NCBI GenBank assembly: GCA_017477685.1
Contig: JAFUUT010000207.1
Span: forward strand, 1-31,322
Length of the DNA stretch: 31,322 bases
Direction of reading: 5' to 3'
From: a bacterium
GTDB lineage: Bacteria; Cyanobacteriota; Vampirovibrionia; Gastranaerophilales; Gastranaerophilaceae
Shown: piece after piece, positions 1 through 16,674 of the stretch
How the letters are laid out: every line of letters starts with the position of its first letter
Numbering within the stretch: the stretch's first letter is position 1
Made by a program: the position numbers and the translations under genes
Notes under the pieces: generated by a model
Databases searched by the model: none
What the model saw: only the letters and a program-made list of their open reading frames with translations
Told to the model about the DNA's origin: nothing

Positions 1-1
1 A

Positions 2-1048
2 TTTATTCCCGATTATGCAGGGCCTGCAACAAAAGAAATTACAGATGAAATAGTTTCAAATTTAGGCTGTGAATTTGAAAGTTCTGTTAAAGGCAAACTT
101 ATATATACCGATTTTTCGAATGCGTATTTTAAGAGAATTAATGAAATTATAGATTTCGAAAAAATAAAAAAATGTTCAAATCATTTTCATATTTTATTTG
201 ATGGTTTGTACAGTTCAAGTATAGGTTATTTTGACAAATTATTATCACAAAATGATATAAAATTTGACAGTATTCGAATGTTTCATGACGAAAATTTCGG
301 CGGTGGGATGCCGGAGCCGAAACCTCAGTATATGCAGGAAGCAATTGATTATATAAAAAGCAAGCATAATTATGCCGCTTTTGCCAATGACGGAGATGCG
401 GACAGGTTTGGTGTAATCAATGAAAACGGAGAATATGTTACCCCAAATGAAATTATGGCAATTTTACTTATGCATCTTAAACAAAACAAAAATTATTCGG
501 GTTGTCTTGTCAAGACGGTTGCAGGAAGTTTGATGCTGGATATTCTTGCTAAACATCTCGGTGTAGATGTTGTAGAAACGGCAGTGGGTTTCAAGCATGT
601 CGGCGAAGCTATGCGCAAATATAATCCGATTATTGCAGGAGAAGATTCCGGAGGATTGAGTATTCAAGGGCATATTCCCGAAAAAGACGGAATTCTTGCA
701 AACCTTTTAATAATTGAGGCTATGGCGTACAGCGGAAAGCATTTGTCCGAATTGCAAAAACAACTCAAAGATTTTGTAGGTTGCGAATTTATAAATACCC
801 GCGTAGATAAAAAGTTAGATAATTTTGATGAAGTAAATCCTACTATTGAAAAATTTTCATCAATGGATGAAATTTCCGGCATGAAAATTATTAAAAAGGA
901 CGCAAAAGACGGAGTAAAATTGTATTTCGATGATGAAAGAAGCTGGATTTTAGTCCGTCCGTCAGGTACAGAACCTCTTTTAAGAATTTATATAGAATCT
1001 GACACTCAGGATAAGATTGATAACATATTAAAAAATATACACATTTAA
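2..1048 (+). CDS. Phosphoglucomutase/phosphomannomutase family protein, 5'-truncated by the window edge
   Basis: The frame is open from position 2 (FIPDYAGPATKEIT...) through the 206..1048 ORF. Metal loop NDGDADR, sugar loop GEDSGG and C-terminal RPSGTEP are present. Confidence 0.93.
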   Translation, partial: FIPDYAGPATKEITDEIVSNLGCEFESSVKGKLIYTDFSNAYFKRINEIIDFEKIKKCSNHFHILFDGLYSSSIGYFDKLLSQNDIKFDSIRMFHDENFGGGMPEPKPQYMQEAIDYIKSKHNYAAFANDGDADRFGVINENGEYVTPNEIMAILLMHLKQNKNYSGCLVKTVAGSLMLDILAKHLGVDVVETAVGFKHVGEAMRKYNPIIAGEDSGGLSIQGHIPEKDGILANLLIIEAMAYSGKHLSELQKQLKDFVGCEFINTRVDKKLDNFDEVNPTIEKFSSMDEISGMKIIKKDAKDGVKLYFDDERSWILVRPSGTEPLLRIYIESDTQDKIDNILKNIHI

Positions 1049-1067
1049 CAATTCTTTACAATCATGC

Positions 1068-1098
1068 AAATCCACTGTTGACAGTGGATTTTGTTTGT
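1068..1098 (+). terminator. Near-perfect palindrome followed by a U-rich tract; likely terminator of the phosphohexomutase gene
   Basis: AAATCCACTGT-TG-ACAGTGGATTT then TGTTTGT, about 20 nt after the stop codon. Confidence 0.6.
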
Positions 1099-1106
1099 CA
1101 TACTAT
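1078..1106 (+). promoter_or_regulatory. Sigma70-type promoter of the S10 operon
   Basis: TTGACA (1078-1083), 17-bp spacer, TACTAT (1101-1106). Confidence 0.7.
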
Positions 1107-1112
1107 TAGTAT

Positions 1113-1212
1113 GCTCAGAGATATTGTCCGAAATATAAAGAATAGCACCCGGGACAAAAACAGGGCGTTGGCGGATTTTCGCCGGCGATATTTTTATACA
1201 AGACAGTTGAGC
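1113..1212 (+). promoter_or_regulatory. Structured 5' leader of rpsJ (candidate r-protein autoregulatory leader)
   Basis: GCTCA/TGAGC closing stem, TTGTCC/GGACAA stem and hairpin CGTTGGCG-GATTTT-CGCCGGCG (1166-1187). Confidence 0.45.
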
Positions 1213-1246
1213 AAAGTAGTACATAGAAAATAAAGGAATGCTAAAG

Positions 1247-1564
1247 ATGGCAAATAGCACAAAAAAATCAAGAATCAGAGTTTGTTTGAAAGCATATGAT
1301 CACAAACTTATTGATGTATCAGCTGAAAAAATCGTAGAAACAGCTAAAAGAACAGACGCTAAAGTAGCCGGTCCTATTCCTTTACCTACAAAAAGACGTA
1401 TATATTGCGTTTTGCGTTCCCCACACGTAGATAAAAAGTCTCGTGAACATTTTGAAATGAGAACTCACAAGCGTATTATTGATATATACGATCCGACTCA
1501 AGCCACTATGGAAGAGTTACGTAGATTAGATTTACCTGCAGGTGTAGATATCGAAGCAAAATAG
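1247..1564 (+). CDS. rpsJ: 30S ribosomal protein S10
   Basis: [22 protein letters not shown] and [19 protein letters not shown]. Start moved to ATG 1247, 9 nt after AAGGA. Confidence 0.98.
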
Positions 1565-1774
1565 TTTGCATACGGTTCCTGCAATGAAAATTGAATAAGC
1601 ATTATGCATATAATGTGAACTACGACCGGGGAAATATTTAATAATCCCGCGGATGACGAGGTGAAAATCCTCGAAAGGTAAAGTAATAGTAGCGCTCGCA
1701 AGCGAAAATGTGCAACTTTGAAAAGAGGCAGAGGAATTCTGCATCAAGTAGGACGAGCACGGAAAGGTAAAAAT
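1565..1774 (+). other. 210-nt hairpin-rich intergenic insert, rpsJ-rplC
   Basis: Hairpins CATTAT/ATAATG, CCG-GGGA/TCCC-CGG, CGAGG/CCTCG, CGCT/AGCG and GCAGA/TCTGC separated by A-rich linkers. Confidence 0.6.
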
Positions 1775-2410
1775 ATGACACTAGGTGTAATAGGTAAAAA
1801 AGTAGGTATGACCCAAATCTTTGATGAAAATGGTTTGGCTGTCCCTGTAACTGTTATCAAAGTTGATGAAACTGTTGTTACTCAGGTAAAAACAGTAGAA
1901 ACTGACGGATACAATGCTATCCAGGTTGGTACAATTGCAGCAAAAGAAAAACATTTATCAAAGGCTCAAATGGGTCACTTTAAGAAAAACAGCTTATCTA
2001 ATTACAGACACTTACAAGAATTCAGAGTAGATAATCCTCAAGATTTCAAAGTAGGTGACAAGGTTGAGTTGTCTGTATTAGACAATGTTGAAAAAGTCGA
2101 TGTAACAGGAAAATCAATAGGTAAAGGTTTCCAAGGTACTGTAAAAAGATGGAACTTTGGCAGAGGACCTATGGCTCACGGTTCTAAAAACCACAGAGAA
2201 CCTGGTTCAATCGGCGCAGGTACAACTCCTTCACGTGTTATCAAAGGTAAAAGAATGGCAGGTAACATGGGTAATGAAAGAGTTACAATCACTAAACTTA
2301 AACTTGTTAAAGTTGATTCAAATAACGGTTTAGTATTAGTAAAAGGTTCAGTTCCTGGTTGTGAAGGAAGATTGGTAACAATCGTTCCAGCAAGAACTAA
2401 ATGGAATTAA
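1775..2410 (+). CDS. rplC: 50S ribosomal protein L3
   Basis: GVIGKKVGMTQIFD, GKGFQGTVKRWNF and GSIGAGTTPSRV. The real start is ATG 1775; the TTG extension from 1718 lies in the spacer. Confidence 0.98.
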   Translation: MTLGVIGKKVGMTQIFDENGLAVPVTVIKVDETVVTQVKTVETDGYNAIQVGTIAAKEKHLSKAQMGHFKKNSLSNYRHLQEFRVDNPQDFKVGDKVELSVLDNVEKVDVTGKSIGKGFQGTVKRWNFGRGPMAHGSKNHREPGSIGAGTTPSRVIKGKRMAGNMGNERVTITKLKLVKVDSNNGLVLVKGSVPGCEGRLVTIVPARTKWN

Positions 2411-2648
2411 AAGGCGTAAGCCGATGTGAAGTGCCGGTGTCGGTTCGCGAGTGCGAAGCGAGCAGGGCTCGAAACATAATATCTCCGCCGTTGTGAATGA
2501 AGCATAAGCGAAATGAACGAACAAATCTTTGATTTGACAGGCGGAATAACAATAACAGACAAGTTATAAAAATCCTCAAGTTGCCATATAAAACGCAAGT
2601 TGCGAAAGGGGTAACAAGCAGTAGTAAAAAGAAAAGGAAAAACAAAAA
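2411..2648 (+). other. 238-nt hairpin-rich intergenic insert, rplC-rplD
   Basis: GGC-GTAA-GCC, AGCCGA/TCGGTT, TTCGC-GAGT-GCGAA, CAAATC-TTT-GATTTG and GTTGCC/GGTAAC stems. Confidence 0.6.
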
Positions 2649-3275
2649 ATGTCAAAAGAAATTTTAAGTACAAATGGTGAAAAATTAGGCGAAATAACAT
2701 TAGCAAAAGAAGTATTTGGCGTAGAACCTAATTTACATGTAATGCACTTAGCATTAAGAAGACAATTAAACAATGCAAGACAAGGTTCAGCAAGTACAAA
2801 AACAAGAGCTGAAGTTGCAGGCGGCGGAAGAAAACCTTGGAAACAAAAGGGAACAGGACGTGCAAGAGCAGGTTCATTGCGTTCTCCATTGTTTGCAGGC
2901 GGCGGTGTAATCTTTGGGCCAAAACCAAGAAGTTACGCTTTCAATATGCCTCAAAAAGCAAGACAATTAGCTTTGAGATCTGCATTATCAGCAAAAGAAT
3001 CTCAAATTGTAGTAGTAAAGGATTTCTCTACAATTTCTGAACCAAAGACAAAGTTAATGGCAAGTGCTTTGAAATCATTAAATGTTAGCGGAAAAGTTTT
3101 AGTAGTAGCGAATACAAAAGCAGATGAAAACAAGAATTTAGAATTATCAGCAAGAAATATTCCAAGCGTAAAACTTTTATTACCGTCAAACTTGAATGTA
3201 AAAGACTTATTGGAAGCTGATTTTGTTGTTATGACTGAATCTGCAGTGAATGAAATTACAGAAAGACTTTCATAG
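2649..3275 (+). CDS. rplD: 50S ribosomal protein L4
   Basis: STKTRAEVAGGGRKPWKQKGTGRARAGS and GGGVIFGPKPR. Confidence 0.98.
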   Translation: MSKEILSTNGEKLGEITLAKEVFGVEPNLHVMHLALRRQLNNARQGSASTKTRAEVAGGGRKPWKQKGTGRARAGSLRSPLFAGGGVIFGPKPRSYAFNMPQKARQLALRSALSAKESQIVVVKDFSTISEPKTKLMASALKSLNVSGKVLVVANTKADENKNLELSARNIPSVKLLLPSNLNVKDLLEADFVVMTESAVNEITERLS

Positions 3276-3300
3276 TCACTAATAGTAAAGGAAAGTAAAA

Positions 3301-3600
3301 ATGAGTAACGAAAAATTATATGATGTAATCAAAAAACCTTTAATCACAGAAAAGTCAGTAGCAGCAACTACAAATGCTCAATATACATTTGAAGTAAAGA
3401 AAGATGCAACAAAAATTGAAATTGCTCAAGCTGTAGAATTGGCTTATCCTGGTCGTAAGGTAAAGAAAGTAAGAACAGTATATATGCCTTCACACACTCA
3501 CAGATGGCAGCGTTTTGGATACAAGTTCGGTTCATCTGACAGTTCAAAAAAAGCTATCGTAACAATTGAAGGCGATCCAATTGAATTTATGGATGTATAA
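3301..3600 (+). CDS. rplW: 50S ribosomal protein L23
   Basis: VIKKPLITEKS, YTFEVKKDATKIEI, KKAIVT and position between rplD and rplB. Confidence 0.95.
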   Translation: MSNEKLYDVIKKPLITEKSVAATTNAQYTFEVKKDATKIEIAQAVELAYPGRKVKKVRTVYMPSHTHRWQRFGYKFGSSDSSKKAIVTIEGDPIEFMDV

Positions 3601-3715
3601 TCATCCGCCCGTCAAACGGGTATTCAGGGCGTATTTGGCACAAGTCCTGAAAGGCGAAAGCCGGTGCGAAGTGCCGGCAAGTCAAAAGTAGTAGAAAGCC
3701 AAAAGGAGAAATAAA
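3601..3715 (+). other. 115-nt hairpin-rich intergenic insert, rplW-rplB
   Basis: CCCGT-CAA-ACGGG, TCAGGGC/GTCCTGA, GGC-GAAA-GCC and GCCGG/CCGGC stems. Shares a 28-nt motif with the rplC-rplD spacer. Confidence 0.6.
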
Positions 3716-4546
3716 ATGGCAATCAGAAAAATTAATCCGACGTCTCCGGGACAAAGAGGCATGACAAAAAGTGATTACCAAGAAATCACAACATCAACTC
3801 CTGAAAAATCATTGCTAAAATCATTGAATAAAAAAGCAGGAAGAAACAACACAGGTAGAATTACATGTCGTCACAAGGGCGGCGGTGTAAAAAGATCATA
3901 CCGTGTAATTGATTTCAAAAGAGAAAAATTCGGAGTAGTTGCAGAAGTAAAAACTATTGAATACGATCCGAACAGAAATGTAAGAATTTCACTATGTTTC
4001 TATGCTGATGGTGAAAAGAGATATATCTTAACACCGGAAGGATTGAATGTAGGTGATAAAATCGTGAGCGGTCCAGAAGCACCTGTACAAACAGGAAATG
4101 CACTTCCGCTTGAATTGATTCCGTTAGGTACGTTTGTTCACAATATTGAAATGACTCCTGGTCGTGGCGGAATTTTAGTAAGAGCTGCTGGTAACAGTGC
4201 TCAAGTTATGGCTAAAGAAGGTAACTATGTAACAGTCAAGCTTCCGTCAGGTGAAATGAGAATGATAAGAAAAGAATGCTTAGCAACAATCGGTGTTTTA
4301 GGCAATTCAGAATTCAAAAACTTATCAATCGGTAAAGCCGGCAGAAAGCGTTATATGGGAATTAGACCTACAGTACGTGGTGTAACAATGAACCCTTGCG
4401 ATCACCCGCACGGTGGTGGTGAAGGAAAAACAGGTCCTGGTGGAAACCCTAAAACACCTTGGGGCAAACCGGCTCTTGGTTATAAGACACGTAAAAAAGG
4501 TAAAGCGTCTGATAAATTAATTGTAAGAAGACGTAATAAGAAATAA
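3716..4546 (+). CDS. rplB: 50S ribosomal protein L2
   Basis: [22 protein letters not shown] and [17 protein letters not shown]. Confidence 0.99.
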
Positions 4547-4576
4547 GATAAACTCAAGTAGATAAAGGAGAAATAA

Positions 4577-4858
4577 ATGGCACGTTCGTTAAAAAAAGGT
4601 GCATATGTAGAAGAATCTCTACAAAAGAAAATCGAAAAAATGAATGCTAACTCTGAAAAGAAAGTTATCAAAACTTGGTCAAGAGCATCAATGGTAGTAC
4701 CTGATATGTTAAACCATACAATCGCAGTACATAACGGTAAAACTCACGTACCTGTTTATATTACTGAAGAAATGGTTGGACACAAATTAGGTGAATTCGC
4801 TCCAACAAGACTTTTCAAAGGTCATGCAGGTTCTGATAAGACAGCTAAAAGAGCTTAG
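4577..4858 (+). CDS. rpsS: 30S ribosomal protein S19
   Basis: IKTWSRAS and [14 protein letters not shown]. Confidence 0.99.
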
Positions 4859-4891
4859 TCAATCCAAAGTAATATTTGTAAATAAAGGATA

Positions 4892-5242
4892 ATGAAAATG
4901 GAAGCAAAAGCAAAACAAACAGACATAAAAATGACAGTACGTAAACTTCGCAGAGTAATTAACGAAGTTCGCGGTAAATCTGTTATTGAAGCTCTAGATA
5001 TGTTGCGTTTTATGCCATATTTTGCAGCAAGAGTAGTTGAAAAGAATTTGAAGGCTGCGATTGCTAATGCAAGAGAACAATATGGTGCAAGTGCTGAATC
5101 GCTAAAGATTTCACAAATCTTTGCAGATGAAAGTACTACATACAAACGTGCAAGAACAAGAGCACAAGGTCGTATGTACGCAAGAACAAAACGTACATCA
5201 CATTTAACTTTAGTAGTAAGTGATACAAAAATAGGAAAGTAA
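4892..5242 (+). CDS. rplV: 50S ribosomal protein L22
   Basis: [21 protein letters not shown] and RAQGR...KRTSHLTL. Confidence 0.96.
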
Positions 5243-5246
5243 TAAA

Positions 5247-5984
5247 ATGGGACAAAAAACACATCCAACCGGATTTAGAGTAGGAATTATTCAAAGCTGG
5301 GCAAGCCAATGGTATGCTCGAGTAAGAGACTACGGAAAATTTGTAGCAGAAGATGCTAGAATAAGAAAATTCGTAAAGAAAAAGCTATACGCAGCTGGTA
5401 TTTCTAAAATATGGATTGCCAGAAAAGGCGACAAGATTACAATCACAGTTGTAACAGCAAAACCTGGTATAGTAGTTGGTCGTGGCGGACAAGGTATTGA
5501 TGATCTTCGCAAAGATGTATCAAAATACATTGGTAAAGATGTTTTAATTAATGTTGTGGAAGTTGCGAGAATTGATGCGGATGCGCAATTAGTAGCGGAA
5601 AATATTGCACAACAGTTAGAAAAACGTATAGCCTTCCGCAGAGCGATGAAACAAGCTATGCAAAGAACAATGAGATCAGGCGTTCAAGGTATCAAAGTTA
5701 TGGTATCAGGACGTTTGGGCGGTGCTGAAATTGCACGTTCCGAATGGGCAAAAGAAGGAAGAATTCCTCTTCAAACATTAAGAGCAGATGTAGATTTCGG
5801 ATTTGCAGAAGCTGATACTATTATGGGTAAAATTGGTGTTAAAGTTTGGATTTTCAAAGGCAACTTAATGCCTGGTGAAAAAGCAGATCAAAACATCAAA
5901 GTAAAATCAAACAGAGAAAACAATTCAGAAAGAGCTGGCAGACGCCCAAGAAGAGCAAAAGCTGCCTCAACTGAAGAAGCGTAA
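5247..5984 (+). CDS. rpsC: 30S ribosomal protein S3
   Basis: [33 protein letters not shown] and [11 protein letters not shown]. Confidence 0.99.
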
Positions 5985-6015
5985 TTAAGGTATAAATAAA
6001 TAGGAGCAATATAAA

Positions 6016-6435
6016 ATGTTACAGCCTAAAAAAACAAAATACCGCAAAATGATGAAAGGCAGAATGAAAGGTACTGAAACCAGAGGTACAAAGCTTGAAT
6101 TCGGTCATTATGGCTTGCAAGCAGTAGAACCTGGTTGGATTACCAGCCGTCAAATCGAGGCTGCACGTCGTGCAATGACTCGTGAAATCAAACGTGGCGG
6201 TAACGTTTGGATTAAGATATTTCCGGATAAACCTATTACTGCTAAACCTGCAGAAACTCGTATGGGTTCAGGTAAAGGTAATGTTGAATACTGGGTATCT
6301 GTTGTAAAACCAAACAGAATAATGTTTGAGTTAGAGTATTTTGATAAAGGTGTTGCTGTACATGCTTTAGAATTAGCTGCACAGAAATTGCCTATCAAAA
6401 CAAAAATTGTAGTGAAAGCTGCAGAAGAAGAATAA
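6016..6435 (+). CDS. rplP: 50S ribosomal protein L16
   Basis: [23 protein letters not shown] and [12 protein letters not shown]. Confidence 0.99.
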
Positions 6436-6506
6436 TCAAACTTGCCTGATAAGATATTCAATAGGTCGAAATATTTAAGGTAAGCAACGTAAAGGAAAAT
6501 ATAAAA
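6436..6506 (+). other. 71-nt spacer containing one hairpin, rplP-rpmC
   Basis: CTTGCCT (6441) pairs with AGGTAAG (6478-6484). Confidence 0.45.
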
Positions 6507-6704
6507 ATGAAATTAAGTGAAATGCGTGAAAAAACAGTTGATGAGTTACAAAATGCAATTGTTGATTGGAAAAAGCAGTTATTAGAATCAAGATTACAAC
6601 TTGCAACTAATAAATTACAAAATACTTCAACAATTTCAAAAACAAAACGACTTATCGCTCAAGCAAAAACAATAATAACAGAGAAAGGTAAGGAAAATGC
6701 CTAA
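6507..6704 (+). CDS. rpmC: 50S ribosomal protein L29
   Basis: MKLSEMREKTVDEL...IAQAKTIITE, size and position. Confidence 0.93.
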   Translation: MKLSEMREKTVDELQNAIVDWKKQLLESRLQLATNKLQNTSTISKTKRLIAQAKTIITEKGKENA

Positions 6705-6942
6705 AAAAGAAAAACAAGGAATGGTTATAAGCAATAAAATGGACAAAACAGTAGTTGTAAAAGTTGCTGATTATGAACCACATCCGAGATACAAAAAAAT
6801 TATGGAATCAAATAAACATTATAAAGCACATGATGCTGAAAATGTTTGCAACGAAGGTGATATCGTTAGAATTGTTGAATCAAAACCAATGTCTAAAGAT
6901 AAACGCTGGACAGTTGCAGAAGTAGTAGAAAAAGCAAGATAG
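6697..6942 (+). CDS. rpsQ: 30S ribosomal protein S17
   Basis: SNKMDKTVVV, HPRYKK, AHDAEN and KPMSKDKRW. Confidence 0.98.
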   Translation: MPKKEKQGMVISNKMDKTVVVKVADYEPHPRYKKIMESNKHYKAHDAENVCNEGDIVRIVESKPMSKDKRWTVAEVVEKAR

Positions 6943-7085
6943 TTGCGTTTCGCATTGCGAAGTTCGCAAGTATCCGGTTCTGAAAATATTTCAGAGCATA
7001 TGCAAAATATCAAAGCAACATTACCATTGAGTAATGAGAGGCAAACAATTAGACCGATAAATTCGGTAAAGAAAAGGAAAGAAAA
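6943..7085 (+). other. 143-nt hairpin-rich intergenic insert, rpsQ-rplN
   Basis: TTGCGA-AGT-TCGCAA, GTTCTGAAA/TTTCAGAGC, CATTAC/GTAATG and ACCGA/TCGGT. Confidence 0.6.
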
Positions 7086-7454
7086 ATGATACAACAAGAA
7101 ACAAGACTGGTAGTTGCAGATAATACAGGCGCAAAACAATTGTTATGTATCCGTGTTATGGGCAGCTCAAATAAGAAATTTGCAGCAGTAGGAGATGAAA
7201 TAGTAGCTTCTGTAAAGGATGCAACTCCTAATATGACTGTAAAAAAAGGTGAAGTTGTACGTGCTGTTATCGTAAGAACTAAAGCAGACATCAAACGTCA
7301 AGACGGATCTGTAATCAGATTTGATGAGAATGCTGCAGTTATTATCGCTAAAGATGGCAACCCTAGAGGAACTCGTGTTTTCGGACCTGTAGCTCGTGAA
7401 TTGCGTGATAAAGGTTATATGAAGATAGTTTCTTTAGCACCTGAAGTTATTTAG
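7086..7454 (+). CDS. rplN: 50S ribosomal protein L14
   Basis: [25 protein letters not shown] and [13 protein letters not shown]. Confidence 0.99.
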
Positions 7455-7554
7455 CCCTTGATAAACCTGATATCAGGTACAGGGATAAATAATCCTGAGC
7501 ATGTTTCAGGATCCCATACAAATGGGAATAGTTAGTAAATAAAAGGAAAGAACA
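7455..7554 (+). other. 100-nt hairpin-rich intergenic insert, rplN-rplX
   Basis: ACCTGATATCAGGT palindrome, ATCCTGA/TCAGGAT and CCCAT/ATGGG. Confidence 0.6.
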
Positions 7555-7893
7555 ATGAAAGATACAACTAAAAAAGACTTACATGTAAAAAACGGCGACA
7601 GAGTTGTTGTTATTGCAGGTAAAGACAAAGGAAAAATCGGCAACATCAAGAAAGTTGATCGTGTTTCCGGCAAAGTAACCGTAGAAGGTTTGAATATGGT
7701 TACTAAGGCTCAAAAACCGATGCCGCAAGCTCAAATTCAAGGCGGACTTATCAAAGTTGAGACTCCAATAGATTCTTCAAATGTAATGATAATGTGTCCT
7801 GCTTGTGAAAAAGCTACAAAACCGGCAATGAAAGTTGTTGACGGTAAAAAAGTTCGCGTTTGTAAAAAATGCGGTGAACAGCTAGATGCTTAA
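7555..7893 (+). CDS. rplX: 50S ribosomal protein L24 (two CxxC motifs)
   Basis: GDRVVVIAGKDKGKIG, SNV, CPAC and CKKC. Confidence 0.97.
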   Translation: MKDTTKKDLHVKNGDRVVVIAGKDKGKIGNIKKVDRVSGKVTVEGLNMVTKAQKPMPQAQIQGGLIKVETPIDSSNVMIMCPACEKATKPAMKVVDGKKVRVCKKCGEQLDA

Positions 7894-8034
7894 TGTATAA
7901 AATACCCCCTTGCCCACAGTGTTTGGGGTGGGAGAGGGTAGAATTTCAAAACCTATGGTTTTAGAAATTCGGGTGAGGGAATTTCCTCATCGGTAAATTA
8001 TGACATTAATACCAATAGTAAAGGAAATGGAAAA
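7894..8034 (+). repeat. 141-nt structured insert, rplX-rplE, containing a CCC..GGGAGAGGG..GGGTGAGGG palindromic repeat module
   Basis: TACCCCCTTGCCCAC...GTGGGAGAGGGTA, GAATTTC-AAAACC/GGTTTT-GAAATTC and GGGTGAGGG (7903-7979). A related module is at 16351-16382. Confidence 0.55.
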
Positions 8035-8592
8035 ATGACAAAAACAAAAGACTTAAAAACAAAATACGTTGAAGATGTAATTCCTGCTTTAAAGGAAAAA
8101 TTCGGATACAAAAATGCTCACCAAGTACCAAAAATGGTTAAAATCGTTTTAAATATGGGTGTTGGTGAAGCTTCTCACAACTCAAAAATTGCAGAAGCAA
8201 TTGAACATCAATTAACAAAAATTGCAGGCCAAAAAGCTGTAGTTACTAAAGCAAAAAAATCTATAGCATCTTATAAATTAAGAGAAGGTATGCCTGTTGG
8301 TGCAATGGCAACATTGCGTGGTGAAAGAATGTATGATTTTATGCAAAAATTAATTTGTGTAGTTCTTCCGAGAATTCGTGACTTCCGCGGTGTAAGTGCA
8401 AAGAGTTTCGACGGCAGAGGAAATTATACATTAGGTTTGAAAGAACAAGCGTTGTTCCCTGAAATTTCATACGAAGAAGTTGATTTAGTAAAAGGTATGA
8501 ACGTTTCAGTTATCACAACTGCAAAAACCGATGAAGAAGCAAGAGAATTATTAAAACTTCTCGGAATGCCATTCAAAGGTATGAATAAATAA
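8035..8592 (+). CDS. rplE: 50S ribosomal protein L5
   Basis: [29 protein letters not shown] and [10 protein letters not shown]. Confidence 0.99.
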
Positions 8593-8627
8593 GATAGTAA
8601 TATAAATAAATCATAAAGGAGAAATTC

Positions 8628-8834
8628 ATGGCTAAGAAAGCGATGATAGACAAAGAAGCAAAACGTGAAAAGTTAGTTGCTGCAGGAAAATATCCGGCAG
8701 TAAGACTTCACAACAGATGCAGTATGTGTGGCAGACCTCATGGTTTCCACAGAGACTTTGGTCTTTGCAGAATCTGTTTGAGAAAAATGGCTCACGAAGG
8801 TTTGCTTCCTGGCGTTACAAAAGCAAGCTGGTAG
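8628..8834 (+). CDS. rpsN: 30S ribosomal protein S14, Zn-binding (type Z)
   Basis: [18 protein letters not shown] and [11 protein letters not shown]. Confidence 0.97.
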
Positions 8835-8865
8835 TATAATTTTAAGTGCTAAAAGCGATTGATAT

Positions 8866-8897
8866 AAAAAGAGTATGGGTTAACTATGCTCTTTTTT
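8866..8897 (+). terminator. Intrinsic terminator ending the r-protein operon
   Basis: AAAAA-GAGTATGG-GTTAA-CTATGCTC-TTTTTT. Confidence 0.85.
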
Positions 8898-8967
8898 AAT
8901 TTTTCCTATGCACAATTACGCTATGCAAAAATGCAACTATAAGTAATATATATTTACCCCTTCCCAT

Positions 8968-8995
8968 TTGAAAAAAAATATTTTCTTGATATGAT
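8968..8995 (+). promoter_or_regulatory. prfA promoter with extended -10
   Basis: TTGAAA (8968-8973), 16-bp spacer, TG-A-TATGAT (8987-8995). Confidence 0.6.
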
Positions 8996-9001
8996 TGTAA
9001 T

Positions 9002-10084
9002 ATGAAAGATATGTTAGAACAGATACTTCAAATAGAAGCGAAATACAAAGAGTTGGGCGAAACTCTTTCTGATCCTGCTGTAATTCAGGATTATAATAAA
9101 TTTAGAGACCTGTCAAAACAAAGAAAGTCAATGGAAGAAACCGTTGAACTTTATTACGAATGGCAAAAAGCAACCAAAACGATTGAAGACGATAAAGAGC
9201 TTTTGCAAGGTGAAAAAGACGAAGAAATGCGTTCTATGTTAAAAGCTGATATCGAGGAGAACGAATCAAAATTGCCTGAGTACGAAGAACGTATGAAAAG
9301 GTTATTGCTGCCGCGTGATCCTATGGATGATAAAGATATTATGCTTGAAATTCGCGGCGGTGCCGGCGGTGATGAAGCTAATATTTTTGCGGGTGATCTT
9401 GCAAGAATGTATTTGAAGTTTGCAGACAAAAAAGGCTGGCAAACCCAAATTCTTTCCAAGACTGAATGTGAAGCAGGCGGTTATTCTGAAATAATTATTT
9501 CTATAAAAGGTGATTCTGTCTATTCTCAATTAAAGTATGAATCCGGTGTTCACAGAGTTCAGAGGGTTCCTGAAACAGAATCACAAGGTCGTGTTCACAC
9601 TTCAACTGCCACAGTGGCGGTTATGCCTGAGGTCGATGATGTTGAAATTGAAATCAGACCTGAAGATATTGAAATGTCTACCGCTCGTTCAGGCGGTGCA
9701 GGCGGTCAAAATGTTAACAAGGTTGAAACTGCCGCAAGACTTTTCCACAAACCGACGGGTATTATGATTTTCTGTACCGAAGAACGCTCGCAGCTTCAAA
9801 ATAAAGAGCGTGCAATGGAAATTTTACGTTCAAAACTTTATGATTTGGAAGTTCAAAAACAAATGCAAGAGGTTACAGACCTCAGACGTTCTCAAGTCGG
9901 TACCGGTGACAGGTCTGAGCGTATAAGAACATACAATTTCCCTCAAGGACGTTTAACTGACCATCGTATCGGTCACAACTTGAATGTTTGGACGGTGATT
10001 GACGGTGATTTGGATGAACTTATTGAACTTTTGATTGAGTATGACCAAAAATTAAAGCTGGAAAAACTTGCCCAACAAGGCTAG
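9002..10084 (+). CDS. prfA: Peptide chain release factor 1
   Basis: [27 protein letters not shown] (PET form of the RF1 PxT motif), GGQ and [11 protein letters not shown]. Confidence 0.98.
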
Positions 10085-10086
10085 GG

Positions 10087-10361
10087 GGGGGTAAATGTTG
10101 CTACCAATGATTGCGCAAGACTTCCCTGCAATTGCGAGCGGGGGTAAATGTTGCTACCAATGGTTGCGCAAGACTTCCCTGCAATTGCGAGCGGGGGTAA
10201 ATGTGTGCCAACACAGGACGCGCAAGACTTTCCTGTAATTACGAGCGGGGGTAAATGTTGCTCCAATAATTGCGCCACTTTGCTCTGTAATTGCGAGCGG
10301 GGGTAAATGCATGTTGCCGCCGGTTGTGCAAGGCTTTCCTGTAATTGCATGCGAAAGTAAA
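10087..10361. repeat. Tandem array of five 52-54-bp units plus a degenerate terminal half-unit
   Basis: GGGGGTAAATG starts at 10087, 10140, 10193, 10247 and 10299; degenerate GAAAGTAAA at 10353. Conserved part is GCGCAAGACTTYCCTGYAATTGCGAGC. Confidence 0.9.
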
Positions 10362-10369
10362 GCAATCTG

Positions 10370-10573
10370 CTAATTAATGGTTTCAATTATTTCCCTGCAG
10401 TTTTCTATTTCCTTAAAAGCAAATTCTACATCTTCTTTAAGAATACTTATTATTGTTCCCTCTTTTGCTTTTCCGTCGATTAAATCATATAAAACATCCA
10501 GCAAATATATTGATTTCAACAGTTTGCCTGAGATATTTTCACTTTTGTATGCGAGTTCTGTTTTATCTTCCAT
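10370..10573 (-). CDS. Small hypothetical helical protein (67 aa)
   Basis: AAGGAG RBS and a strong promoter TTGACA-17-TATACT on the minus strand (10643 to 10615). No family recognised. Confidence 0.75.
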   Translation of the reverse strand: MEDKTELAYKSENISGKLLKSIYLLDVLYDLIDGKAKEGTIISILKEDVEFAFKEIENCREIIETIN

Positions 10574-10584
10574 GACATCTCCTT

Positions 10585-10680
10585 AGTTCTACTTAATTCT
10601 ACTTTATAGAATTAAGTATAATAAAGTAGAATTGAAATGTCAAATAATATGTAATAATATCAAATAAAATGTAATAAAAT
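10585..10680. promoter_or_regulatory. Divergent promoter region with nested inverted repeats and four 10-bp direct repeats
   Basis: 12-bp IR 10590-10601/10607-10618 and 13-bp IR 10595-10607/10621-10633. Decamers CAAATAATAT, GTAATAATAT, CAAATAAAAT, GTAATAAAAT (10641-10680). Plus-strand TTGAAA-17-TAATAT (10632-10660). Confidence 0.75.
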
Positions 10681-10697
10681 GATAAAAAGGTATAACA

Positions 10698-10850
10698 ATG
10701 GCAGAAGAGAAAAAAAGGCTTACATTACTTGTTGATTATGATGTTTTTGAAAAGTTTAAAAAACTTGCTCAAGAACAAAATCGTACAGCGGGTAACTTGG
10801 GAACAAAACTTTTAAAGGATTATGTAAAAGAGAATTACAAAGATAAGTAA
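10698..10850 (+). CDS. Ribbon-helix-helix (CopG/Arc-like) DNA-binding protein, 50 aa, not in the ORF track
   Basis: MAEEKKRLTLLVDYDVFEKFKKLAQEQNRTAGNLGTKLLKDYVKENYKDK: alternating beta-strand RLTLLV, then two helices with an NRT turn. AAAGG RBS. Confidence 0.8.
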   Translation: MAEEKKRLTLLVDYDVFEKFKKLAQEQNRTAGNLGTKLLKDYVKENYKDK

Positions 10851-10851
10851 C

Positions 10852-11100
10852 ATGACAGAACGACGTTGTGCCGGATGTTGGCAAATTAAAGACCGAAAAG
10901 ATTTAATAAAGATAACTAATGCGGCAGGAACCCCCGTCGTTAACCCGAATTCGACCACATTTGGCAGATCTGTATATCTTTGTTATAATAAATCTTGTAT
11001 AGATGCAGCTTTTAAAAAGAACAAAATAGAAAAGTTTTTAAAAACTTCTGTACCAAGCGAATTGAAAGGACAGTTATTAGATGAGTTACGAAACAGTTAG
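10852..11100 (+). CDS. ylxR: YlxR/DUF448 family RNA-binding protein
   Basis: ERRCAGC...KDLIKI...GRSVYLC...CI and position immediately upstream of infB. Confidence 0.88.
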   Translation: MTERRCAGCWQIKDRKDLIKITNAAGTPVVNPNSTTFGRSVYLCYNKSCIDAAFKKNKIEKFLKTSVPSELKGQLLDELRNS

Positions 11101-13582
11101 AATAAGTGAATTAGCAAAAGAGCTCGGACTTCCAAGCAAAGAAGTTGTTGAGAAGTTTGAGAAAATAGGGGTTACAAATAAAACTCATTCAAGTACTGTT
11201 ACTCAAGATCAAATAAAAAGGTTGAAAGAATTTATCGCTGATGGCGGTGTAAAGAAAACTGCCAAACCAAAAGCGTTTGTTGTAAAAAAAGCAAAGGTCG
11301 CAGAGCCTGAGCCTGAAAAAGAAGAAGTTCAAAAACCTGAAGAAAAGGAAGAAGTAAATCCGGAACCTAAAAAAACTATAGAAAAACCAAAAATAGAAAG
11401 ACCTGCTCCGTCAAGAATTGAAATTGTCAGACGTGCGCCGAAGAAGCCTCTTGTTTCTTCTGAAAAGGCTGATCGTCCTGAACGCTCAGAGCGTCCAAAA
11501 CGTCCTCAAAAAAATGACGATGGCAAAACTTTTGACAAGTCTAAAAAAACAGCAGACAATTCTCAAAAAGGTTTTGCGGGCAAAAAACCTATAGAACGCC
11601 GTATTATTCCTCAGGATATATATGAAAATAAAACAGGCGGTGCAGGTAAATTTGGCGGAAGTAAGAATTCCGGTAAGAAAAAGGATAAAGATTTTAATTC
11701 TAAAAAAGAAGAACAAGAAATGATTTCTTTGGAAAAGGCTGCTGCTCAGCACCATAAGAAAAAAGTTCAAAAGGCCGAAGAAGTCGAGGAAGTAAAACAA
11801 ATTGTTGTCACAAATGCAATGACAATTGCCGAGTTATCTGAAAAAATAAAGAAAACTCCTGCTGATATTGTAAAATTCCTAATGATGAACGGAACAATGG
11901 CAACAGTAAACCAATTAATAGATGTCGATATTATTAAAAAAGTTTGTGCAGAATATGGTTTGGAAGTTTTAGAAGAAGATTTGGAAGCATTCATGGAAGA
12001 AGAACTTGCAAAAGAAGAAGAACAAAAAGCTCTTTCAAATGTTGACAAAAAATTGCTCAAAAAACGCGCCCCTGTTATTAGTATTATGGGGCACGTTGAC
12101 CATGGTAAAACTACGTTACTCGATAGTATTCGTGCTTCAAAACATAAAATTGTTGCAACTGAGGTTGGTGGTATAACACAATCTATCGGTGCTTATACTG
12201 TTTATGTCGGTGATAAGAATGACAAAAAAATCGTATTCTTAGATACTCCGGGTCACGAGGCTTTCACGGAGATGAGAGCTCGCGGTGCGCAGGCTACAGA
12301 TATTGCAATTTTGGTTGTTGCGGCTGATGACGGTATAATGCCTCAAACTATTGAAGCAATCAACCACGCTAAAGCTGCTGAAATTCCTATTATTGTTGCG
12401 GTCAACAAAATCGATAAACCGGGAGCAAATCCTGACAGAGTTTTGCAGCAATTGACAGAACACGGTTTGGTTCCGGAAGATTGGGGCGGAGATACGATCG
12501 TAGTCAAGGTTTCTGCTTTGCAAGGAACAGGTATTGATGAACTTTTGGAATACATTTTGCTTGTTGCTGATGTTCAAGATTTGAAAGCCAACCCGAAAGC
12601 CGAAGCGACAGGTGTTGTTATTGAAGCTAATCTTGATAAAGGTAAAGGACCTGTTGCAACATTGTTGGTACAAAATGGTACACTTCGTGCAGGTAATTGT
12701 ATTGTTGTCGGTACTGCTTGCGGCAGAGTTCGTGCGTTGTTATCCGACAGCGGGGAAAGAATTCAAAAGGCAGAGCCATCAACTCCTGTTGAGATTTTAG
12801 GTTTGTCTGAAGTTCCTCAAGCAGGTGATAATTTCAAAGTTGTTAAAAATGAAAAAGAAATGAAAGCAATTACCGCAGAACGTCAAGAAAAAGCAAGGGA
12901 TAAGCGATTAGAAGCTATGCTTCCTGCACATATCAGACGTGAAGCTGTTGCCGGAGATGATAATATTCCTCAGTTGAATTTAATTATCAAAGCTAATACA
13001 AACGGTTCTGCTGAGGCTGTTGCTCAAGCTATTGCACAGGTTGAATCAAAAGAAATCGCAACAAAGATTATTCACGTTGGTGTCGGTGATATTTCAGAGG
13101 CCGATGTTATGCTTGCAGCTGCATCCGGTGCTTTGATTTTAGGATTTACGGTAAAAGAAGATGCGAAAGCTCTTGCGGCTGCGGAAAAAGAAGGCGTTAC
13201 AATCCGTAAGTATGATATTATTTATCAATTGCTTGAAGACATCGAAAAAACATTATTATCACTTCTTCAACCTGAAATTAAACAGGTTGAACTCGGAAAA
13301 GCTGAGGTTAGACAAGTATTTAATATTGGTAAAACAGGTAAAATTGCCGGATGTTATGTTCTTGAAGGTAAAATTGCCCGTTATAAGGATGCTGTTATAC
13401 TTCGTGATGGCGTTGAAATCTTTAAAGGCCCTATCGAGCAGCTTAAACGCTTTAAAGATGATGTTAAAGAAGTCGCACAAGGTTTTGAATGCGGTATATC
13501 ATTTGGTAAGTTTAATGATTTGCAAGAGGGCGATATTATTCAAGTTTCAACCACCGAAGAAATTGAAAGAACCAGCTTGTAA
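11081..13582 (+). CDS. infB: Translation initiation factor IF-2
   Basis: RAPVISIMGHVDHGKTTLLD, DTPGHEAF, NKID and C-terminal LKRFKDDVKEVAQGFECGI. Confidence 0.99.
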   Translation: MSYETVRISELAKELGLPSKEVVEKFEKIGVTNKTHSSTVTQDQIKRLKEFIADGGVKKTAKPKAFVVKKAKVAEPEPEKEEVQKPEEKEEVNPEPKKTIEKPKIERPAPSRIEIVRRAPKKPLVSSEKADRPERSERPKRPQKNDDGKTFDKSKKTADNSQKGFAGKKPIERRIIPQDIYENKTGGAGKFGGSKNSGKKKDKDFNSKKEEQEMISLEKAAAQHHKKKVQKAEEVEEVKQIVVTNAMTIAELSEKIKKTPADIVKFLMMNGTMATVNQLIDVDIIKKVCAEYGLEVLEEDLEAFMEEELAKEEEQKALSNVDKKLLKKRAPVISIMGHVDHGKTTLLDSIRASKHKIVATEVGGITQSIGAYTVYVGDKNDKKIVFLDTPGHEAFTEMRARGAQATDIAILVVAADDGIMPQTIEAINHAKAAEIPIIVAVNKIDKPGANPDRVLQQLTEHGLVPEDWGGDTIVVKVSALQGTGIDELLEYILLVADVQDLKANPKAEATGVVIEANLDKGKGPVATLLVQNGTLRAGNCIVVGTACGRVRALLSDSGERIQKAEPSTPVEILGLSEVPQAGDNFKVVKNEKEMKAITAERQEKARDKRLEAMLPAHIRREAVAGDDNIPQLNLIIKANTNGSAEAVAQAIAQVESKEIATKIIHVGVGDISEADVMLAAASGALILGFTVKEDAKALAAAEKEGVTIRKYDIIYQLLEDIEKTLLSLLQPEIKQVELGKAEVRQVFNIGKTGKIAGCYVLEGKIARYKDAVILRDGVEIFKGPIEQLKRFKDDVKEVAQGFECGISFGKFNDLQEGDIIQVSTTEEIERTSL

Positions 13583-16092: not shown

Positions 16093-16128
16093 CTATATTA
16101 TATAATAAAGATTAAAATAAAAAAAGTA

Positions 16129-16674
16129 ATAAATAGTACTATCGGAACTAGCACAATTTTCCACTTATGTTCACTTTTTCTTTCCATTGCGACGGGAAAG
16201 AAAAAGTGAACCGAAAAAGAAAGCACGCCAGACAACAACGCTGCCTGACGGCATCGTTCCGCTCGGAATATGTAGGCATAAAATACTCATACGTTTTTGT
16301 CCTACGGACAAAAATCTCTAAGCGCAGCTAAAACAACGCTGCGCATTATAACCCCCACCCTGACCCTCCCCCTTGGAGAGGGAATTATTCCCCGACTTTT
16401 ACGACAATTAATGCAAAATATGCTACACCGATAAACTACATTTACCTCCGACCTTTGCGCAGTGAGTAATCATTGTTTGCGACACAGGTTCAAAGCGGAA
16501 TTTGTCTGAGGACGTCAGTCCGAGTTATTCCGCTTGATGTGGAGCAAATACAGATGATTAACGAACGAAGCATCAGGTCGGGGAGTTTCTGGGCGCCACC
16601 CGTCTTTGCGGTCAAAGATGGGTGGCATGGGTAGTTTCTTTTTGTAAAAAGGAACTACTGATAGTACTATTTAT
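16129..16674. mobile_element. Non-coding MITE-like, highly structured element bounded by 15-bp inverted repeats
   Basis: ATAAATAGTACTATC (16129-16143) and GATAGTACTATTTAT (16660-16674). At least eight internal hairpins, including a perfect 17-bp stem (16169-16211). No long ORF and no transposase. Confidence 0.55.

Follow-up and report, generated by a model that had tools for sequence, protein, structure and literature searches.

Conserved junction motifs and dispersed RNA modules in the expanded spacers of a Gastranaerophilaceae S10-spc operon

Classic ribosomal-protein operons combine a single operator with translational coupling of their cistrons. Small interspersed repeats of the BIME, BOX, ERIC and Correia types are described, in the relevant part of one published account, as attenuating transcription, triggering cleavage by RNase E or RNase III and stabilising upstream mRNA (PMC3049150), and a conserved structure upstream of rplC has been reported in cyanobacteria (PMC12873609). 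Here we describe a locus that recalls both ribosomal-protein leaders and interspersed repeats, the S10-spc operon of a rumen/gut member of the Gastranaerophilaceae (Melainabacteria), contained in a stretch of 31,322 nucleotides (contig JAFUUT010000207.1 of assembly GCA_017477685.1, forward strand) that we refer to as the window. Seven of the intercistronic spacers of this operon are expanded, and we consider it probable that each of them has two layers, a cis-acting core specific to its junction and insertions of selfish, dispersed RNA modules. The result is about 1 kb of structured RNA, family-wide, inside an operon that is among the most compact and conserved gene arrays of bacteria.

Fifteen ribosomal-protein genes, recognised from open reading frame calls, reading of the sequence and Pfam matches, occupy positions 1238-8834 of the + strand in the order rpsJ, rplC, rplD, rplW, rplB, rpsS, rplV, rpsC, rplP, rpmC, rpsQ, rplN, rplX, rplE and rpsN. 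An initial annotation, made from the sequence alone, had reported seven long junctions, and gene calls and coordinates reproduce its lengths exactly: S1 (rpsJ-rplC, 1565-1774, 210 nt), S2 (rplC-rplD, 2411-2648, 238 nt), S3 (rplW-rplB, 3601-3715, 115 nt), S4 (before rpmC, 6436-6506, 71 nt), S5 (before rplN, 6943-7085, 143 nt), S6 (rplN-rplX, 7455-7554, 100 nt) and S7 (rplX-rplE, 7894-8034, 141 nt), all on the + strand and together 1018 nt. The remaining junctions are as short as it had stated (-8 to 35 nt), and it was equally right that the spacers lack U-tailed terminators: zero terminator-like sites were found on the + strand inside all seven, and the sites that were found flank the operon, at 1068-1091 (directly 3' of the upstream gene) and 1166-1187 before rpsJ, and at 8866-8896 after rpsN.

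The expansion was compared among relatives whose genomes derive from rumen and gut metagenomes. Expanded spacers of variable length are present at the same junctions in all 24 sampled species of the genus, and also in five further genera of the Gastranaerophilaceae, and the expansion is therefore neither an artefact nor the peculiarity of one strain. The junctions of four sister families of the same order are 2-30 nt, rpsJ-rplC excepted. Among 62 named Gastranaerophilales loci, spacer length tracks the identity of the L4 protein and drops below about 78% identity. Spacer expansion is a family-level trait of the Gastranaerophilaceae, in which the tight spacing needed for translational coupling and for feedback through a single operator has been lost.

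Alignments across the genus show that each spacer is composite: a conserved, single-copy part adjoins the ribosome-binding site (RBS) of the downstream gene, and the part that follows the upstream stop codon comes and goes. The conserved parts, or cores, are far more conserved than the third codon positions of the flanking genes, only 26% of which are invariant, and a search of the source genome returned no second copy of any core. The depth of conservation differs among them, the rplC leader being order-wide, the rplD, rplB and rplN motifs family-wide (retained throughout the family or in most of its genera, but missing from the sister families), and the rpmC, rplX and rplE motifs genus-wide. 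The initial annotation had offered cis-acting structured RNAs as one of two explanations of the spacers; this is supported for the conserved, single-copy parts next to the start codons, several stems of which covary. Conservation and covariation among orthologous spacers, by which it had proposed to judge its structures, are found in the cores, with compensatory changes in the closing stem of S1, the outer stem of S2, the inner stem of S6 and the stem of S7.

S1 (1565..1774), which we read as an rplC leader RNA, contains an invariant block at 1585-1623 that includes a hairpin at 1599-1616. CUAC at 1620-1623 pairs with GUAG at 1689-1692 in an outer stem, which encloses a lineage-expanded insert bearing a hairpin (1657-1673) and the Shine-Dalgarno-like AGGUAAA, and which is followed by the conserved GCGCUCGCAAG. 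Across 15 species of the genus 75 of the 210 columns are invariant, with runs of 9-11 invariant bases. A minimal S1 of about 90 nt is present in every examined family of the order; the shorter form of the other families retains a motif containing AAUGUGAUCUAC, the covarying closing stem (CUACG/CGUAG, CUGCG/CGCAG or CUGU/ACAG) and GCGCUCRCAA, and the stem interior is enlarged by 70-100 nt in the Gastranaerophilaceae. No evident sequence similarity was seen between S1 and the structure upstream of rplC in cyanobacteria.

Some of the conserved blocks might instead be DNA signals, for example an internal promoter in the invariant block of S1 that makes rplC its own transcription unit, although we regard this as improbable. 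The block does contain TTGAAT and TATAAT-like hexamers; the rpsJ-rplC gap is long throughout the order (91-467 nt) even where all other junctions are compact; and the structure reported upstream of rplC in cyanobacteria (PMC12873609) could be counted in its favour. Contigs assembled from RNA libraries, the best-matching of which are from bovine and sheep gut and include rumen runs that hold close relatives of the source strain, are without depth in the S1 bin in three of four runs, but such gaps can arise from strain divergence. The hexamers are, however, 12 nt apart (at least 19 nt with alternatives), their distance varies by 0-3 nt among species, and the block holds a hairpin followed by a covarying stem. 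S1 was set aside as a promoter on the unfit spacing of the hexamers and on a promoter scan that reports nothing in the spacer. We had also entertained the idea that S1 marks the end of a tuf-rpsJ unit, an operon boundary known from cyanobacteria, and dropped it because the gene upstream of rpsJ (2-1048), previously taken for tuf, encodes a phosphoglucomutase-type enzyme.

The core that precedes rplD (L4) lies at 2553..2648 and has an outer stem (2580-2585/2610-2615) followed by the RBS; of the elements that this stem encloses, the internal loops AUAUAAAAC and GAAAGG are conserved and the apical hairpin (2594-2604) is variable. It is kept in all six examined genera of the family and is missing in four sister families, and the compensatory changes of its outer stem are CG:8, GC:6 and UA:2. 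Before rplB (L2) there is a core hairpin at 3626..3649, conserved in the genus and present in four of five other genera of the family; a conserved GGC in its loop is a potential pairing partner of the conserved AAAGCCAA (3696-3704). The motif before rpmC (L29), at 6436..6506, combines an outer stem and an inner hairpin with a conserved GGUCG, and is found at 17 of 21 loci of the genus, the other four having a junction of 18-20 nt. Both of its stems covary by eye in the alignment; RNAalifold applied to the MAFFT alignment gave no consensus structure, a procedure that under-calls structure where variable hairpins misalign, as in S1 and S4.

Two elements are distinguished in S5. An upstream hairpin of the GUCCUGAA...UUUCAGGAC type (6977..6997, + strand) recurs in S5 and S6 of many species, and in the source genome is also present at 7492-7512 of the window and at one other site. 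The core before rplN (L14; 7015..7042) is a CAUUAC...GUAAUG hairpin with GC...GC closing and an asymmetric internal loop, invariant in 17 species of the genus, represented by covarying variants in other genera of the family, and found in none of the sister families. S6 (7455..7554) has three hairpins, including the recurrent one at 7492-7512, and exists in the genus as two alternative spacer types, the other of which has a conserved CAUG...CAUG and a covarying inner stem. The S7 core before rplE (L5; 8003..8034) comprises the 3' arm of a hairpin, an A-rich tract and the RBS; the hairpin begins directly after the rplX stop codon (about 7894-7905) and its stem shows compensatory changes in four of seven pairs, and the A-rich tract is nearly invariant at 16 of 17 loci of the genus.

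Fold strength was expressed as a z-score against dinucleotide shuffles, and the spacers had been expected to fold better than shuffled sequence. Part of them do, namely the 5' half of S2 (z=-2.5), S3 (-3.7), S5 (-4.0), S6 (-2.6) and S7 (-3.2). The description of the hairpins as comparatively GC-rich is borne out and the linkers are AT-rich, with 36-72% GC in paired segments (the minimum being that of S4) and 19-26% in unpaired ones; overall GC is 39.6% in the spacers, 36.6% in coding sequence and 34.4% in the genome. The minimum-energy folds contain 27 hairpins, among which there is a single strict GNRA loop, so the mention of GNRA loops was overstated. A search of positions 1-12000 of the window against Rfam 15 gave zero matches at E <= 1.

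Judged from their sequences, the cores have the position and the conservation of autoregulatory ribosomal-protein leaders. They would most likely act in cis on translation initiation of the downstream cistron, either as feedback operators or as insulators that permit independent initiation. Cis control of initiation is the most economical explanation because the cores precede each RBS, are conserved, and stand where close spacing has been lost; gaps of 70-240 nt leave no room for the translational coupling that would be expected in related families, where junctions measure 2-30 nt. We know of no protein partner for the cores. Candidate cis-regulatory motifs are now available before rplC, rplD, rplB and rplN.

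The variable part of S2 is a full-length copy of a module that we designate Family A (2411..2550, + strand). This copy begins immediately 3' of the rplC stop codon, reaches 163 bits with covariance model R1, and is 82% identical to an insert in the RNase P RNA of the same genome. The model is based on an alignment of 30 copies from many loci, of about 140 columns, for which RNAalifold gives seven helices in about 135 nt, comprising a small capped hairpin, a long interrupted hairpin and a three-way junction. Pairing is 98.4% over 32 pairs in the 30 copies, as against 88% with partners shuffled and 31-37% with partners slid by 1-3 columns; compensatory changes affect 18 of the 32 pairs, and 0 of 500 shuffles reached the observed covariation. 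Two positions have fixed sense-strand G-U pairs, which would be mismatches on the opposite strand, and many unpaired bases are invariant though the copies are 70-85% identical overall. Rfam scans of the module-bearing loci matched only RNase P RNA, tRNA and SRP (signal recognition particle) RNA, and literature searches found no description of the spacer elements or modules in Melainabacteria. We regard Family A as a new family of structured RNA that is well supported: its covariation is strong, and Rfam has no entry for it.

By covariance model, Family A is found in 48 of 86 genomes of the family, with at least 26 matches in the richest of them, five in the source draft genome and a few in three sister families; a set of 100 genomes spread over 28 further families of the phylum gave none. 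BLAST recovers it from 45 of the 61 genus genomes, at 1-15 matches each. Within the S10 operon it occupies rpsJ-rplC, rplC-rplD, rplW-rplB or rplB-rpsS according to species (only some species of the genus have it at rplC-rplD), and all 16 of the matches at S10-operon loci are on the sense strand. The sense orientation extends to every copy for which a neighbouring gene or RNA reveals the direction of transcription.

The contexts of 84 distinct copies with flanks were surveyed, using the offset between position 1 of the model and the last base of the stop codon. Relative to a stop codon on the same strand, 48 of the 84 start at -13 to +1 nt and 45 of those 48 at -4 to +1, so that the stop codon abuts or overlaps the first bases of the module. 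Seven copies follow a T-run (a terminator or a tRNA trailer), three follow SRP RNA and four are inside RNase P RNA. About a dozen more are part of a composite repeat of one genus, and the others are in tandem or without clear context. Sixteen of 19 upstream or flanking reading frames could be identified, as L3, L6, S4, S8, S9, S11, S13 and SSB (in the rpsF-ssb-rpsR operon), and operon alignments place copies after rplW (L23) and rplB (L2) as well. One further upstream reading frame has a GroEL-like C-terminal tail, read by eye. Family A is thereby concentrated in highly expressed transcripts of the translation machinery, a preference that is unusual for interspersed repeats. The 5' flank mostly terminates in TAA, TAG, TGAA or a T-run, and a single target word does not emerge.

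Placement of this kind raises the possibility, which we hold as a minority view, that Family A and perhaps Family B (described below) are functional host signals for punctuation or stability at the 3' edge of translation-machinery genes. Such a signal could recruit an endonuclease, cleave itself or cap the message against 3' exonucleases, and the cistrons would then be processed and dosed separately. The sense orientation wherever direction can be read, the fixed sense-strand G-U pairs, the unpaired bases held invariant across paralogous copies, the very tight placement at stop codons and also after tRNA and SRP RNA genes, and the near-exclusive association with ribosomal-protein genes among identifiable upstream genes are all in its favour, as are sites that are kept across species (ssb-rpsR, rpsK-rpsD, downstream of rplF and downstream of SRP RNA). 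It is harder to reconcile with the range of copy number among closely related genomes (from none to at least 26), including the 16 of 61 genus genomes in which BLAST finds none, with orthologous sites that are often empty, with near-identical copies carried away from stop codons in a larger composite repeat, and with the frequency of tandem and partial copies; the insert in RNase P RNA is hard to square with a cleavage signal. If the module were functional it would be a new kind of operon punctuation. A stronger version, in which Family A is a new class of functional RNA (a small ribozyme or a protein-recruiting processing module) that punctuates the 3' ends of translation-machinery genes, and in which cistron-by-cistron processing and control have replaced translational coupling in the S10-spc operon, is more doubtful still; in that version the module might spread at the RNA level, into abundant transcripts.

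Two observations concern sites of this type. On contig C2 (locus L032, 1726-1947) the ssb-rpsR spacer is 222 nt long and contains a Family A-related module 1 nt past the stop codon together with a short Family B-like element; the same site in other species has a full Family A copy. In genomes G139 and G072 (loci L237, 648-745, and L255, 1000-1095) a Family A copy lies about 55 nt 3' of the SRP RNA gene on the same strand, and the flanking sequence found downstream of SRP RNA also precedes a Family A copy in the source genome, at contig C102:1098-1268.

At orthologous sites some species have the module and others lack it. Where filled and empty sites were compared, in RNase P RNA and at rplC-rplD, Family A proved to be inserted cleanly, with no target duplication and with ends that are not inverted repeats. 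The RNase P RNA of the source genome is of class A (Rfam; contig C43:11420-11920, locus L031 921-1421, minus strand) and owes its length of 501 nt to a Family A module of about 150 nt that is inserted between J11/12 and P12. RNase P RNA measures 480-511 nt in three species, 413 nt in a fourth and about 350 nt in the rest of the genus, and in genome G063 the tip of P12 bears a Family B-like insert as well. P12 is sometimes dispensable in the RNase P RNA of cyanobacteria (PMC2858038).

Family A is also modular. A 5' fragment (P0 and the start of P1) lies in S3 at 3650..3679 on the + strand, where domain 1 stands alone, as it does in tandem partial copies elsewhere; 25 of 28 bases are identical to 2410-2437, the same motif is on contigs C43, C2 and C273, and in another species (L021) a full copy occupies the rplW-rplB junction. 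On contigs C2, C273 and C352 domain 1 is joined to a different 3' domain, and fusions of Family A to the recurrent hairpin and to Family B were found. Copies are single or in direct tandem, with no inverted pairs seen. A Family A-like module also follows a run of 13-14 G, off stop codons, in a composite repeat of complete genome G155 (loci L113-L120 and L125); its many near-identical copies in one genus look, from their sequences, like a recent burst.

Family B is represented by a copy at the tip of the S7 core hairpin (7905..7982, + strand), with further copies on contigs C120 (two), C218 (two), C150 and C282. Most species of the genus lack this insert at rplX-rplE and have a spacer of 46-55 nt there, and in the close rumen relatives represented among the RNA-library contigs a 22-nt hairpin replaces 7897-8001. 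Two contigs that bear Family B begin or end inside the repeat, which suggests that the repeat breaks assembly; in practical terms, these repeats break metagenome assemblies of Melainabacteria genomes.

A search of the spacers against the source genome, as had been proposed, separates the two layers: nucleotides 1-140 of S2, part of S3 and nucleotides 12-89 of S7 are dispersed repeats, and the cores are single copy. The impression that the spacers are mostly not copies of each other is correct within the window, where the lone shared piece is the 28 nt of 2410-2437 and 3650-3677, and does not extend beyond it. Colonising elements, the second explanation given in the initial annotation, accordingly account for the variable parts of S2, S3 and S7, which are patchy between species, although "small palindromic" does not describe the multi-helix fold of Family A. 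They might be old, domesticated elements, as had been suggested. Self-comparison of the genome gives about 337 short repeated regions covering about 48 kb, and the largest single-linkage repeat cluster has 58 regions, the S7 element among them. These repeats, and the repeat copies in S2, S3 and S7, are what would be expected if the spacers were wholly decayed selfish repeats with no function in cis, yet we give that explanation very little credence, in view of cores that are single copy, fixed in position and nearly invariant, with stems that covary while synonymous sites vary.

Two other stretches of the window fall in the same large cluster. At 10087-10361, directly 3' of the release-factor gene, a unit of about 55 bp is repeated five times in tandem, with up to five other matches in the genome self-comparison, and a hairpin-rich non-coding stretch at 16114-16393 has up to seven genome matches.

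The absence of target duplications and of terminal inverted repeats, and the fixed polarity of the copies, could be explained if the modules were non-autonomous derivatives of the IS200/IS605 or REP/RAYT type that move as single-stranded DNA, with an orientation fixed relative to replication. This too seems unlikely. In its favour, the one complete genome has its + strand copies grouped on one chromosome half and its - strand copies on the other, and members of the order, the source organism among them, carry Y1 transposase genes. Such genes occur, however, in 27 of 86 family genomes and in 12 of 34 from outside the family without any relation to module content, they are missing from genomes with 9-25 copies, and no Family A match lies beside six Y1 transposase genes; Family A is moreover much larger and more complex than REPs, and is not seen in inverted pairs. 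Reverse transcriptase does not track the modules either: 46 of 86 genomes of the family have it, an enrichment over the 7 of 34 in other parts of the order, yet there are module-rich genomes without it and module-free genomes with it. The source genome has a single Y1 (RAYT-like) transposase gene (contig C280:497-832) and a single reverse transcriptase gene (contig C296:894-1334), neither of which is linked to modules.

We favour the reading in which cis-acting cores are joined by selfish modules. The modules would be mosaic interspersed repeats, kept because their autonomous folding leaves neighbouring signals undisturbed; blocking of 3' exonucleases or attraction of endonucleases would probably be an incidental effect. 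Repeated gain and loss are indicated by the patchy distribution, the use of different junctions by different species, the tandem and partial copies, the recombining domains and the recent amplification of the composite repeat. If the modules are selfish, they show how folded RNA parasites can establish themselves even in transcripts under the highest expression and the strongest constraint.

Several results weigh against this reading. S1 (z -1.1 and -1.3), S4 (-1.1) and the 3' half of S2 (-0.8) show no excess of folding over shuffles. A short-word BLAST of the cores against the rRNA operon of a relative from the same family gave matches at chance level only, which leaves the idea of feedback operators without positive support, although structural mimicry of rRNA could easily escape a search by sequence. 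The evidence at the RNA level consists of assembled RNA-library contigs only, in which DNA carry-over is possible. No transposase or reverse transcriptase tracks the modules, and they have neither terminal inverted repeats nor target duplications, so that mobility is inferred from their patchy distribution alone. The strict sense orientation and the conserved unpaired bases fit a host function equally well. The orientation bias of Family A could, finally, reflect the replication strand instead of transcription, ribosomal-protein genes being usually on the leading strand.

At the borders of the operon some further features were noted. The region upstream of rpsJ (1049-1237) has a near-consensus promoter, TTGACA-17-TACTAT (1078-1106), which overlaps the hairpin at 1068-1091, and the hairpin with a T-tail at 1166-1187 could be an attenuator. 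The gene 3' of rpsN encodes a peptide chain release factor, and the spc operon is split, with rpsH-rplF-rplR on contig C273 (locus L033, 853-2700). There the rplF-rplR gap is 195 nt, and the cluster closes with a Family A-related module and a terminator in place of rpsE.

Among known systems, the cores are most readily compared with ribosomal-protein leaders such as the E. coli S10 leader (L4) and the spc operator (S8), which likewise are conserved structured RNA directly before a cistron; they differ from these classic leaders in that up to seven motifs are found in one operon, one per expanded junction. Intrinsic terminators are a poor match, since no spacer has a GC-rich hairpin with a U-tract. 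The intercistronic processing and stabilising elements of chloroplasts, and the tRNA punctuation of mitochondrial transcripts, are structures that define processed ends between cistrons; only the concept is shared, as the spacer elements are not tRNA-like and have no known partner of the pentatricopeptide-repeat type.

The modules resemble BIME/REP, ERIC, BOX/RUP/SPRITE and Correia elements in being multi-copy, intergenic, co-transcribed, highly paired and strain-variable, and they share with the modular BOX A/B/C mosaic the property of separable, recombining domains in tandem or partial arrays. Family A is unlike these small interspersed repeats in that it is no palindrome: its fold of about 135 nt includes a three-way junction, and it has unpaired bases that are invariant. 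It differs further in being sense-only where this could be judged, in usually starting at the stop codon, and in its concentration in ribosomal-protein operons and stable RNA genes. REP/BIME elements (RAYT) are imperfect palindromes of 20-40 nt, often in inverted pairs, from which Family A departs in size, in pairing and in association with Y1. It has neither the terminal inverted repeats nor the target duplication of miniature inverted-repeat transposable elements, and may be compared with the palindrome-associated elements of the IS200/IS605 group in the lack of target duplication and the fixed polarity, although its 5' flanks yield no single target word and no link to TnpA was found. Heterocystous cyanobacteria carry short tandemly repeated repetitive (STRR) sequences in helix P12 of RNase P RNA, and Rickettsia palindromic elements lie inside genes; these and Family A are alike as dispersed repeats tolerated at a peripheral, dispensable site of an essential RNA or gene. 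The insert described here is a folded module of 135-150 nt at J11/12-P12, whereas the STRR sequences are short tandem heptamers, and Family A, unlike them, also punctuates ribosomal-protein operons.

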